DNA of 64,000 nt from Candidatus Helarchaeota archaeon (GTDB lineage: Archaea > Asgardarchaeota > Lokiarchaeia > Helarchaeales > RDOG01), in the NCBI GenBank assembly GCA_019058315.1, contig JAHPZH010000002.1, positions 1,229,910-1,293,909 of the forward strand, in the 5' to 3' direction. Shown here in pieces: positions 14,787 through 20,738 of this stretch; within the stretch, counting starts at the first letter, position 1, and each line of letters begins with the position of its first letter. The notes under the pieces were generated by a model that made no database searches, had not been told where the DNA came from, and was given only the letters and a program-made list of their open reading frames with translations. The position numbers were made by a program, and so were the translations under genes.

Positions 14787-15647
14787 ATGTCTGAAAAATA
14801 TAAAATGGATCAAAAAATCGATAAATCATTGATAACTAAGGAAACTTTCAAAGCATTCATAATAGTAATCTCAATCTGTGCATTAGCATGTTTAATTGCA
14901 TCTTTCGTTATAGCTGGTGCATTTAACGATCCTGAAAACAATCCATTAGGTCATAATCTTCAATATATTTACATTCCAATTATATTAATTATAATTGGTA
15001 CAGTAGGTGTTTCATTACCATTTGTTGTAGTTGTTGTCACACGAGTTTACATGGGTAAGTATGTAAGCAGTTTTAAATACAAGTTGACCAATTCTGCAAT
15101 AGAGATTCGCCAAGGTGTGTTCACAAAGAATAAAGTCACCATACCTTATTCACGTGTTCAAAATATTAATGTCGTGAATGGTATCTTCGATAGAATTTTT
15201 GGACTTTATACCGTTTTAATAGAAACGGCTGGTATTTCAGGAGTACAAGCACAAGGAGGTAAAATCGGAAGACCTGAGGGTTATTTACCTGGATTAAAAA
15301 ATCCACATGAATTCGAAGCAGAATTAAAACAAATGTTAGACAAGTATAATGTGTTACCATCGGGATTAGAAGAAAAAATCTTCAAGCCTCAAGAATTAGC
15401 CTTTGATAATTTTATCTCTTATATACTTAGCAAAATGAGAGATAGAGATGATTTATTAAAAACGAATGTTAAAGACCTCAGGGAAAAACAAAAAATAACC
15501 TCAATAGAGCTTGCAGCAAAAATAGGAGTTAAAAACGAAACTATAGAACTTTTAGAAGCAGGAAGATACACGCCTTCATTAAGTTTGGCGTATAAAATTG
15601 CTAAAGAATTAAAATGCAAAATAGAAGACCTATTTCAATTCGATTAA
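14787..15647 (+). CDS. Membrane protein: 2 TM + bacterial PH (bPH_2/YdbS-like) + C-terminal XRE HTH
   Basis: IRQGVFTK..TIPYSRVQNI..GIFDRIFGL..IETAG, then ELAAKIGV...LEAGRYTPSLSLAYKIA. Confidence 0.85.
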   Translation: MSEKYKMDQKIDKSLITKETFKAFIIVISICALACLIASFVIAGAFNDPENNPLGHNLQYIYIPIILIIIGTVGVSLPFVVVVVTRVYMGKYVSSFKYKLTNSAIEIRQGVFTKNKVTIPYSRVQNINVVNGIFDRIFGLYTVLIETAGISGVQAQGGKIGRPEGYLPGLKNPHEFEAELKQMLDKYNVLPSGLEEKIFKPQELAFDNFISYILSKMRDRDDLLKTNVKDLREKQKITSIELAAKIGVKNETIELLEAGRYTPSLSLAYKIAKELKCKIEDLFQFD

Positions 15648-15687: not shown

Positions 15688-16074
15688 GTGAGATTAAAAA
15701 CAAAATTAGTTTCCAAAATTAAGGAATTACGGGCGGAGAGTGACATTACTCAAGAAAAATTAGCTGAAGAAGTTGGTGTCACTCGCCAAACTATTTCCTA
15801 TTTGGAGAAAGGCGAATATAATCCCTCTCTAAAAATTGCTCATGATATTGCACAATATTTTGGAAAATCAGTGGATGATGTTTTTACATATGAAACAGTA
15901 TTAACTATTAAAAGAGAACAATTTAATCTCACTCTTGAACAATTAGCCACCCTGATTGGTATCAAAATTGAAGAATTAGAAAAATTAGTAAATGAGGAAT
16001 ATCAAAATCCTCCAGAATTTTTGAAAAAAATAGCAAAACAATTAAATTGTAAAATCGAGGATTTGGTTGAGTAA
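15688..16074 (+). CDS. XRE-family regulator with two HTH domains
   Basis: TQEKLAEEVGVTRQTISYLEKGEYNPSL, plus a second degenerate HTH (LTLEQLATLIGI). Confidence 0.9.
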   Translation: MRLKTKLVSKIKELRAESDITQEKLAEEVGVTRQTISYLEKGEYNPSLKIAHDIAQYFGKSVDDVFTYETVLTIKREQFNLTLEQLATLIGIKIEELEKLVNEEYQNPPEFLKKIAKQLNCKIEDLVE

Positions 16075-16105: not shown

Positions 16106-17209
16106 GTGAATCATTTGGATAAACTAAATGAGTTTTTTGCCAAAAAATGGGCATTACCCCTATTATATTTTGTTTTAATTATTTTAAACGTGATCTTTCC
16201 TCCTATAACATCTAGAGGATATGCTGCTCAGGATACTGGAAGAGTAATATCAAGTTTATTAAATACCTCTATCATTCCTTATGTATGGTTAGCCCCTGTA
16301 TTTCATATTGCGACAATAATTTTAGTAATTATTATTTGGCGTCTAGGGGTCAAAGTAAGTAGAGTTTTTAGTTTATACATTGGTATAAATTATATTTTTA
16401 TAGGTCTTATCCAAAATTTTGGAGAAACATGGGAATTTGGTTTTGTTATATTAATCGGGACTATGATTACAGAATTCATAATAGGATTTTTATGGATATG
16501 GGATGCTTACGATCCTAAAACTGAAAGTAAATTTGAGAAACTTCCACTTTGGAGATATTGGACTATACCATTAGCGATTTTAGCATATTGGTGCCCAATT
16601 AACTCTACACAAAACATGGGACCCTATTTCAACCCACTATTTTTATTGATTTCGCCAGGGTATGGACTTACTTTTTGTATGACAACACCCGTGTTTCTAT
16701 GTATTTTAACCCTTTTCTATCCACATGTAAATAAACCCGCTCTTAAAATAACAGCTTGTGCTGGATTTATTATGGGAGTTTTGAATATGTTTAGTTTGCT
16801 CATCCCTTACACCTTTTGGATGGGTATATTGCATATTCCTTTATTGTCTATCTCAATTTATGTATTCATTTTACCTAAAATAATGAAAAATGAGCCAAAA
16901 ATTGTAAATCAAGAACTTGTAAAAATCCCCCATGTTCAAGGACGTCTTATTGGAGAAGTAAACATAGGTAAGTTAGAAGATTTTTTAATTGCAGAAAAAT
17001 CTACCGAAGGAGTAGAGGTAGGCGATATTGTTGAAATTATTGGGGGACCATTTAAAGGAGAAAAAGCAAAAATCACCCGAGTTGATACAACTGAAGATGT
17101 AGTTATTTTAGTATTATGTGAATCTACTCGCCCGATTCCAATTAAAGTTCATGCAGATTTTATTAAAAAGATAATCAGTAAAGAAAAAAGAAAGCCTGAA
17201 ATGAAATAA
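16106..17209 (+). CDS. Multi-pass membrane protein fused to the C-terminal part (KOW) of archaeal Spt5
   Basis: About 8 hydrophobic segments, then IPHVQG..GEV...LEDFL...VEVGDIVEIIGGPFKGEKAKITRVD...PIPIKV. Confidence 0.75.
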   Translation: MNHLDKLNEFFAKKWALPLLYFVLIILNVIFPPITSRGYAAQDTGRVISSLLNTSIIPYVWLAPVFHIATIILVIIIWRLGVKVSRVFSLYIGINYIFIGLIQNFGETWEFGFVILIGTMITEFIIGFLWIWDAYDPKTESKFEKLPLWRYWTIPLAILAYWCPINSTQNMGPYFNPLFLLISPGYGLTFCMTTPVFLCILTLFYPHVNKPALKITACAGFIMGVLNMFSLLIPYTFWMGILHIPLLSISIYVFILPKIMKNEPKIVNQELVKIPHVQGRLIGEVNIGKLEDFLIAEKSTEGVEVGDIVEIIGGPFKGEKAKITRVDTTEDVVILVLCESTRPIPIKVHADFIKKIISKEKRKPEMK

Positions 17210-19031: not shown

Positions 19032-20738
19032 GTGCATGTGATGAAAGAAAAAGAAAAGACAAAAACTACCGATCTTGAAACTTTTAAAAAATTACCAAAG
19101 GATCAACGCAAGAAAATTCGAGAAAAAAGAAGAATCGAAGCTGGTTTGCCTACAAAAATGACTATATACCTCTGGTTTGTTCTCTTCTTTGCAAGTGTCG
19201 TTACATTTTTCGATGGATGGTGTACTCTCGCAATTACGCTGGCTATGGGAAGTTTTGCTGGAGGAGTAGATTTATTGGAACAATTACTTAATCCTGATCT
19301 TTTTACATATTTTGGATTAACATCTAGTCCGGTTATGATGGGAATTATTCTTTCTATAGCAGGAATTGGAGTCGTAGTTGCCGTTTCTTTTAAATATTTT
19401 GTTGATAAATATGGTCGTCGTCCATTAACTCTTATAACTGCAGTTCCGTTTATTACATTCTCAGTTTTAACTGCATTTGTTCCTCCTAGTAGAGAAGGGT
19501 TAATTTTATTTCTTATTTTAAGGATTTGTGCTAACTACTTTCTTTCAGCTGATGTGGTAACTATTATAATAGCGGAAGAATCTCCTAATCATTTGAGAGG
19601 TAGATTGGTTTCAATGGTTCTTGCAATGAATGCAGTTGGGGGGTTTGCTTGTGGAATGATTCAAGCGACGGGAATTAAAATTCCATTCTCTGGTGCTTGG
19701 GGACCAAGTTTAAGTACCTGGCAAAGTTTATTTTTCTTGACGAGTATTGGATATTTATTTATTATTCCACTATTTATCTTCTTAAAAGAAACTAAACGAT
19801 TTGTACAAATGAAAAAATATGAAGAATGGCGAGCAAAAAAAGGATTAAAAGCTAAATCTGGATGGTTTGCACCTTTACAAAAAAAATATGCACGGGGGAT
19901 GGCAACAGGAATGATCGTTGGATTTTTAGCACAATTAATATATTTTGCTCAAGTAACCTTCTTCGCACTCTATTTTGCTAAAGAACAGAATTTAACTCCA
20001 AAGGTGGTAGGAATTGTATCATTACCACTAATGCTTGCAGCAGGAGTAGGTTATTTTGTAGCTGGACCTATATTAGACCGATGGGGAAGACTTCCCACTA
20101 TATATAGATTTGGTTGCACAACTTTAGTAGGAGGTATGGTCTTTTCATGGCCTACAGTCTTTATTGTTGGTGACATTGCCAATCCGTTACTTATGGGCAT
20201 TGTTTTAGCTGGAGGTATGATGGGTATATTCTCTCTAACAATATTAGCTGCTGCAGGAACTATTCTTCCCATGGAAATGTTACCAACTCATATTCGAAGC
20301 ACTGCTATGGGTTGGATCGGTGCTATTTCAAGAGGTGCAACTATTGTGGCTCCTTTCTTAATGATGTATGGGGCGGAAGCATTGGGTGGATTAGGACTTA
20401 CTTATCAAGCTATGTTCGCACTCATGGGAATGCCATTGACAACAATACTGTTTACTGCCTTCCTATTAGCACCTGAAAGTAAGGGAAGAGATTTGGAGGA
20501 AATCGTAGCTACTGAAACTTACTCTAAAATGAAGAAAATATCTGAAAAAGAATACAGAAGACCTTATTACTACTTTGCAATAGCCATCTCTTCATTTTAT
20601 ATTACAGGATTAATTTACGGTAATACCTCTGATGCAAATTTCTTAAATGTATTCATTATCGCGACCTTCTACACGGCGTTATGCTTGGTTTGTTTCATAT
20701 TAGTTATTCTGGTCCGTAGAATAATTACAGAGAAGTAA
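19032..20738 (+). CDS. MFS transporter (paralog 2)
   Basis: Same motifs as 11741..13453 (FFDGWCTLAITLAMG, DKYGRRP, PESKG). Confidence 0.9.
   Translation: MHVMKEKEKTKTTDLETFKKLPKDQRKKIREKRRIEAGLPTKMTIYLWFVLFFASVVTFFDGWCTLAITLAMGSFAGGVDLLEQLLNPDLFTYFGLTSSPVMMGIILSIAGIGVVVAVSFKYFVDKYGRRPLTLITAVPFITFSVLTAFVPPSREGLILFLILRICANYFLSADVVTIIIAEESPNHLRGRLVSMVLAMNAVGGFACGMIQATGIKIPFSGAWGPSLSTWQSLFFLTSIGYLFIIPLFIFLKETKRFVQMKKYEEWRAKKGLKAKSGWFAPLQKKYARGMATGMIVGFLAQLIYFAQVTFFALYFAKEQNLTPKVVGIVSLPLMLAAGVGYFVAGPILDRWGRLPTIYRFGCTTLVGGMVFSWPTVFIVGDIANPLLMGIVLAGGMMGIFSLTILAAAGTILPMEMLPTHIRSTAMGWIGAISRGATIVAPFLMMYGAEALGGLGLTYQAMFALMGMPLTTILFTAFLLAPESKGRDLEEIVATETYSKMKKISEKEYRRPYYYFAIAISSFYITGLIYGNTSDANFLNVFIIATFYTALCLVCFILVILVRRIITEK

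Follow-up and report, generated by a model that had tools for sequence, protein, structure and literature searches.

The window, a 64,000-nt stretch of DNA from an Asgard (Helarchaeales-like) archaeon, contains an uninterrupted open reading frame in which a multi-pass membrane protein is joined to a piece of the transcription elongation factor Spt5 (Table 1). Its GTG start lies 31 nt past the end of the upstream HTH gene. An earlier note on this stretch had described about 260 residues of membrane sequence followed by the end of the NGN domain, the linker and the KOW domain of Spt5. This description is correct in detail, as judged from hydropathy, the TIGR00405 and PF00467 profiles and Spt5 structures in the PDB.

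Table 1. Features of the chimeric locus and of the donor gene. Positions are those of the window unless another contig is named.
Feature	Position	Strand	Remarks
bPH-TM-HTH gene	14787-15647	+	syntenic with L025
Tandem-HTH gene	15688-16074	+	syntenic with L025
Whole chimeric ORF	16106..17209	+	367 aa plus stop, GTG start, uninterrupted
Membrane part, aa 1-262	16106..16891	+	about eight TM helices; unnamed family of ~260 aa
5' junction zone, GAGCCAAAAATTG (E-P-K-I)	16892..16904	+	crossover not placeable more precisely
spt5-derived insert, 306 nt, 102 codons, aa 264-365	16895..17200	+	corresponds to own spt5 codons 55-156
NGN remnant, aa 264-294	16895..16987	+	last 31 of 78 NGN residues
KOW beta-barrel, aa ~299-359	17000..17182	+	pLDDT 90-95; best Foldseek matches are archaeal Spt5 KOW
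Pfam KOW motif, aa 305-334	17018-17107	+	PF00467
Post-insert segment, ATGAAATAA	17201..17209	+	compare ATAGAATAA in L025 and ATGGAATAA in L037
LRR-repeat gene, 563 aa	17244..18935	+	34 nt 3' of the chimera; also 3' of the KOW piece in L037
MFS transporter gene	19032..20738	+	in L025 directly 3' of the unfused membrane gene
True spt5	L002:1330-1968 (G000 contig C5, ~1,129.3-1,129.9 kb; outside the window)	-	tail donor

Hydropathy and an AlphaFold model place about eight transmembrane helices within residues 16-261 of the chimera, and residues 1-262 are modelled with pLDDT >90 (AF2 model, alignment of 40 homologues). Given an N-in start, the predicted cytoplasmic loops all hold the positive charges, as the positive-inside rule demands. 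Since these charges fall on the loops that are cytoplasmic under such a start, an N-in/C-in topology is predicted, with the KOW tail in the cytoplasm. No second copy of the membrane gene was found in a search of this genome; the fused gene is thus its sole representative of the family.

Residues 1-262 are homologous from end to end with standalone proteins of 255-280 aa encoded by Asgard archaea, other archaea and bacteria. The closest homologue (P0003; 263 aa, 85% identity, E 2e-146) is encoded by an Asgard MAG (contig L025), and the membrane part evolves with omega 0.15 relative to this orthologue. At least 40 further standalone homologues were retrieved from a search of 5.8 billion proteins, and 231 representatives of the family were counted at E<=1e-10 among 1.84 billion representative proteins. 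Alignment of the family contains 12 invariant columns. C-termini of the homologues differ in both length and sequence.

Structural comparison gave clusters of similar size (261-267 aa) in the ESM Atlas with TM scores of 0.88-0.92; all Atlas fold matches were 'hypothetical protein' clusters. DUF6064 (PF19540) is carried by only 11% of members of the structurally similar Atlas clusters, and the membrane part may be distantly like this family; the part itself has no Pfam match at E<=1. Foldseek search of the PDB retrieved nothing at E<=0.001. Two candidates proposed by VIA-align, a designed cage (Z 6.6) and otopetrins (Z 6.2 at rmsd ~5), were set aside as helical-bundle noise. Consequently, Foldseek against the PDB, VIA-align and the Atlas yielded no fold match that names a function for the membrane part.

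The C-terminal 109 residues match the NCBIfam profile of Spt5, TIGR00405, over positions 51-144 of 145 (E 3.9e-22, 78.8 bits, cutoff 69.95; overall 76-79 bits and positions 49-144), and the tail also scores above the cutoff of the Pfam KOW profile PF00467 (34 bits for the same residues, overall 31-34 bits, cutoff 22.3). Its best PDB matches are archaeal Spt5 structures, led by 9bct_G (E 4.6e-19) and followed by 3qqc, 3p8b and 4zn1 (to 2e-15). The note had named uL24 as a KOW family whose better match would count against Spt5. The tail reaches 13-16 bits against the uL24 profiles TIGR01079 and TIGR01080 (cutoffs 48-54), and uL24 in the PDB is matched only at E 1e-3 versus 5e-19 for Spt5, so that the Spt5 assignment holds. 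Profiles of the paralogues RfaH, LoaP and UpxY were likewise rejected (13-20 bits, NCBIfam cutoffs 100-145).

The NGN domain is largely missing. In the genome's own Spt5 it occupies residues 8-85 (PF03439); the chimera keeps residues 55-85 alone and lacks the first 45-47 of 78 residues (58% of the domain), the portion that contacts the RNA polymerase clamp and Spt4, and it gives no PF03439 match at E<=1. When modelled with an Spt5 alignment, the region of the remnant (aa 255-295) has pLDDT <56 and is predicted to form a flexible linker of about 40 residues ahead of the KOW barrel. The long E/K-rich C-terminal extension of Spt5 is absent as well. With most of the NGN gone, the chimera can neither take the place of Spt5 on RNA polymerase nor partner Spt4, and it is not an elongation factor. 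This job is still performed by the intact spt5.

The true spt5 is found on the contig of the chimera at a distance of about 117 kb, in the context ftsZ-secE-spt5-tmk, and encodes an intact protein of 212 aa (NGN 8-85, KOW 96-127). It is the one other match to the tail in this genome. Comparison of the two, proposed in the note, gave a clear answer: the insert is 87% identical to the genome's own spt5 in DNA and 83% in protein, far beyond chance, and contains no indels. Residues 262-365 of the chimera align without gaps to residues 53-156 of Spt5, residues 298-329 (the KOW core) are identical in both, and DNA similarity ends abruptly on either side. As for the donor protein itself, its KOW domain is followed by an E/K-rich extension of about 55-60 aa, which terminates in a run of lysines and TKFVL. 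Spt5 of related Helarchaeota (P0043, P0056-P0058, P0081) has comparable tails that finish in a like manner, and spt5 open frames of more distant relatives in the class measure 245-295 aa. Typical archaeal Spt5 stops at about 145-155 aa.

The contig encoding the closest homologue of the membrane part shows what the locus looks like without the insert. Gene order in L025 is the same as in the window: an FAD oxidoreductase gene on the minus strand, the bPH-HTH gene, the HTH gene, the membrane gene and the MFS transporter gene. Its membrane gene is unfused (263 aa), and the locus contains neither a KOW domain nor the LRR gene. Since the genes upstream of the chimera are syntenic with L025, the gene row must be older than the KOW insertion.

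Two of the upstream genes deserve separate mention. The HTH gene of the window encodes a tandem double HTH_3 protein of 128 aa (15688-16074) and its counterpart at L025:2673-2876 a single HTH of 67 aa, which suggests internal duplication of this gene in the window's lineage. The bPH-TM-HTH gene is 69% identical in nucleotides to L025:1571-2437 (dS 1.67, dN 0.25); its flanking neighbours are 85-88% identical to L025, with dS of about 0.6.

Presence of the LRR gene downstream of the chimera, and its absence at the syntenic L025 locus, would be explained either by a second insertion in the window or by a loss in L025. The LRR family is very large in this genome, with 64 DNA matches of 64-76% identity on several contigs; no close paralogue of the LRR gene is among these 64 matches. 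We treat it as a neighbour of the chimera.

Comparison of the three sequences delimits both junctions. The unfused gene in L025 terminates with GAG CCC AAA ATA GAA TAA. In the chimera, GAG CCA AAA ATT GTA leads into the spt5 piece, and the gene ends with CCT GAA ATG AAA TAA; spt5 at the 5' junction reads GAA CCA CAA ATT G. Here the end of the unfused gene (GAGCCCAAAATAG in L025) and spt5 (GAACCACAAATTG) agree at 9 of 13 bases, and a match of this grade to the membrane-gene end is found for only 3 of the 706 13-mers in the scanned spt5 stretch. At the 3' junction, six of nine bases are alike between GAA CCT GAA of spt5 and GAG CCC AAA of the membrane gene. The predicted peptide that spans the fusion is IMKNEPKIVNQELVK. 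The membrane-to-KOW (5') junction was seen in this assembly alone.

A related arrangement was detected in a second organism. A 65-aa match to KOW only (P0077) led to L037, a Logan contig of 1,165 nt (run SRR10836662). The spt5 piece of the window recurs on this contig (dS 0.20 between the two), which also has the 3' breakpoint, the spacer and the LRR gene in common with the window, the breakpoint being identical. The two LRR genes are 82% identical in amino acids over the 268 codons present on the contig. The first 12 nt of the contig (L037:1-12, CTTCCGATCT) are presumably an Illumina adapter remnant, and real sequence begins no more than 2 nt from the 5' junction, which leaves the membrane-gene side outside the contig. 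This start could be due to chance or to a branch in the assembly graph, for instance if fused and unfused alleles were present in one sample.

Past the 3' junction, the chimera reads ATG AAA TAA TT..TATT and L037 reads ATG GAA TAA TT. Both resemble the last two codons, stop and 3' flank of the membrane gene (ATA GAA TAA TTAATTTATT). The final nine nucleotides of the chimera thus probably belong to the membrane gene, whose last two codons and stop resume past the insert.

We propose that in-frame copying placed a 306-nt piece of spt5 (codons 55-156, encoding the last third of NGN, the linker and the complete KOW) among the final codons of the eight-TM gene, where it would have come to lie between the codons for E-P-K and the final two codons plus stop. 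Both junctions contain the short imperfect homology GARCCNNAA, which suggests a mechanism guided by microhomology; templated repair or insertion at such sites would produce the observed arrangement. The product would be the normal membrane protein of the family with a cytoplasmic tail, composed of the flexible remnant and then an intact KOW barrel.

We wondered if the tail is under selection, as the note had suggested should be asked of the KOW part. Pairwise maximum likelihood codon fit of the chimera and L037 tails gave omega 0.29 (likelihood ratio test against omega=1, p 0.004); the same approach gave 0.015 for the genome's own spt5 and that of another Helarchaeota member (P0043). In a three-branch model, omega was 0.16 on the L037 branch (p 0.029), 0.46 on the window branch (p 0.22 against 1) and 0.024 on the spt5 branch; values of the window and L037 branches do not differ significantly, and all these tests on the tail are weak, comprising 102 codons in three or four sequences. 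Parsimony with outgroups assigned 15 nonsynonymous and 6 synonymous changes to the window tail since its split from L037, and 0 and 11-12, respectively, to the true spt5 branch. Changes of the window branch in the barrel include charge reversals and E-to-V; no nonsynonymous change falls in the KOW core (aa 298-329). Constraint is therefore demonstrable across the two copies, where it is relaxed in strength and yet detectable as purifying selection, but it could not be proved for the window copy, whose branch taken by itself is indistinguishable from neutrality. Because purifying selection is detectable across both copies, the tail is probably translated and kept folded.

What such a tail might do is suggested by its relatives. 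The KOW domain of archaeal Spt5 touches the FttA/aCPSF1 dimer, with an interface of 1,024 A2 in T. kodakarensis (PMC11616081). A KOW-only fragment gave no stimulation of termination in the same study (PMC11616081). If active, the KOW tail of the chimera may serve as a tether or a decoy for a KOW partner at the membrane. It is quite conceivable, at a little under even chances, that the tail has an accessory role, most plausibly by engaging at the membrane one of the usual partners of KOW, FttA/aCPSF1 or the ribosome; we regard it as just as conceivable that the tail is a tolerated passenger.

In the stricter form of the latter reading, which we consider possible though somewhat doubtful, the KOW domain has no role and is heading for loss, its insertion having been tolerated because the C-tail of the family is variable and cytoplasmic. 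Variable length and sequence of homologue C-termini fit this well, and so do the excess of nonsynonymous changes on the window branch (15 versus 6), where omega=1 is not rejected, and the failure of searches to find the fusion elsewhere (see below). Neutral decay is less easily reconciled with omega of 0.16 (p 0.029) on the L037 branch and of 0.29 (p 0.004) between the two copies. Moreover, neither copy has acquired a stop or an indel, even though a stop would restore the ancestral protein.

That the tail is kept adaptively, as a decoy or anchor that recruits or sequesters FttA/aCPSF1 or the ribosome, had been raised in the note. We judge this rather unlikely. It is true that the tail has an intact KOW barrel, modelled with confidence and predicted to be cytoplasmic, that its core has stayed constant despite diverged synonymous sites, and that the domain is known from T. 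kodakarensis to bury a considerable surface on FttA (the above 1,024 A2; PMC11616081). Reading frame and boundaries are preserved in two lineages (omega 0.29, p 0.004), and a neutral frame of the tail's length stayed open after 26 random substitutions in only about 17% of simulations. All this has to be set against omega of 0.46 on the window branch, not significantly below 1, many surface changes that alter charge, occurrence of the fusion in one or two organisms only, and the inability of a KOW-only fragment to stimulate FttA termination (PMC11616081); selection might also merely oppose a tail that misfolds. Less probable still is a working tether that would hold FttA/aCPSF1 or ribosomes at the cytoplasmic face and so titrate termination or couple translation to the membrane.

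To estimate when the piece was copied and from which gene, synonymous divergences were compared. Three flanking or host genes differ between the window and L025 by dS 0.57-0.61, and the chimera tail differs from the genome's own spt5 by 0.41-0.44. Since 0.44 is lower than about 0.6, the copy appears to postdate the separation from the L025 organism and would have arisen in this lineage. The ancestral unfused state retained in L025 fits copying after the split. The corresponding value between own spt5 and the Helarchaeota spt5 (P0043) is 1.10; the tail is at 0.95 from the latter, and its range to spt5 of the two relatives compared is 0.68-0.95. Donation of the fragment by another organism's spt5 rather than by the own gene is very unlikely on these figures: the tails of the chimera and L037 do share G79 with Spt5 of the L025 organism (P0098) and not with own Spt5, but no known full gene is closer than own spt5 (0.41-0.44 versus 0.68-0.95), and no nearer Spt5 emerged from the search of 5.8 billion proteins.

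Searches were performed for the same fusion in other genomes. Among 40 relatives none was found; matches span either aa 7-266 or aa 223-366, never both parts. It was likewise missing from the search of 5.8 billion proteins, which covered both near and shorter lengths, from the best 150 matches listed among 1.84 billion representative proteins, and from JGI metagenome contigs and GTDB genome contigs. The only short match across the junction region (P0324) turned out to be a membrane fragment of 66% identity, and a JGI contig 78% identical to the tail (L040) contains an ordinary spt5 with tmk downstream. In this contig the spt5 frame breaks past the NGN (L040:1-420), for which a frameshift introduced by sequencing is the probable cause. 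Among the papers searched, none joins KOW domain, transmembrane, NusG and domain architecture, and membrane-fused forms go unmentioned in a NusG review (PMC7819879). The fusion looks real and very rare, and it is confined to this lineage.

Misjoining of an spt5-like piece to the membrane gene during assembly or binning is scarcely credible: contamination of the genome is estimated at 6.6% and L037 breaks off at the 5' junction, but a 13% difference from the genome's spt5 indicates that the piece is a locus of its own rather than a collapsed repeat, the contig measures 1.4 Mb, the flanks form one locus syntenic with L025, so that misjoining would take two precise in-frame errors in the space of 310 nt, and an artefact is made less likely still because L037, from a different sample, repeats the 3' junction.

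We therefore consider it likely, though not certain, that the gene is a real, young and lineage-restricted chimera, in which a piece of own spt5 has been copied in frame into a membrane gene. A recent gene chimera was one of the readings offered in the earlier note, and it is strongly supported by the present analysis: both parents are identified, a close relative has the unfused allele, the junctions contain short homologies, and dS makes the copy younger than the split. The arrangement of KOW piece and LRR gene occurs in a second organism. The locus offers an unusually clean Asgard case of domain accretion, in which one can see the two parent genes, the allele as it was before insertion, both breakpoints and a relative time-scale. 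Should the tail bind FttA or ribosomes, it would provide a natural handle on archaeal KOW-partner interactions; should it bind neither, the gene would be a textbook case of a young chimera, and its functional importance would be limited. The working tether, if true, would put the universal Spt5 KOW to a new use, observed soon after that use arose.

To our knowledge, Spt5/NusG is the only transcription factor common to all life, and we know of no described paralogue that is not soluble or that does not keep the polymerase-binding NGN. A partner-binding KOW alone on a polytopic membrane protein is an architecture that very large searches did not turn up elsewhere.

The first half of the chimera can be compared with its unnamed family of about 260 aa, for which there is no solved structure. 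Motifs FHIAT, YGLTFC.TTPV and LHIPLL of this family are retained within residues 1-262. Unlike the chimera, no other member was found with a KOW or any other C-terminal domain.

The second half is a direct copy of residues 55-156 of an archaeal Spt5 (TIGR00405; 3P8B, 4ZN1, 9BCT). Archaeal Spt5 has a complete NGN and a secE-spt5 neighbourhood and is soluble; the chimera has none of these and is fused to eight TM helices. Rates of evolution differ correspondingly, with omega of 0.015-0.03 in archaeal Spt5 and 0.3-0.5 in the chimera tail. RfaH, LoaP and UpxY resemble the chimera in that each is an extra NusG/Spt5 copy beside the housekeeping gene, and the KOW of the chimera could serve as a module for binding partners. 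These paralogues are soluble and have an NGN that binds RNA polymerase, whereas in the chimera the NGN is destroyed and the KOW is tethered to the membrane. The chimera is thus an Spt5-derived paralogue that lacks a complete NGN and is membrane-tethered, and its main value lies in the transparency with which domain accretion can be followed.
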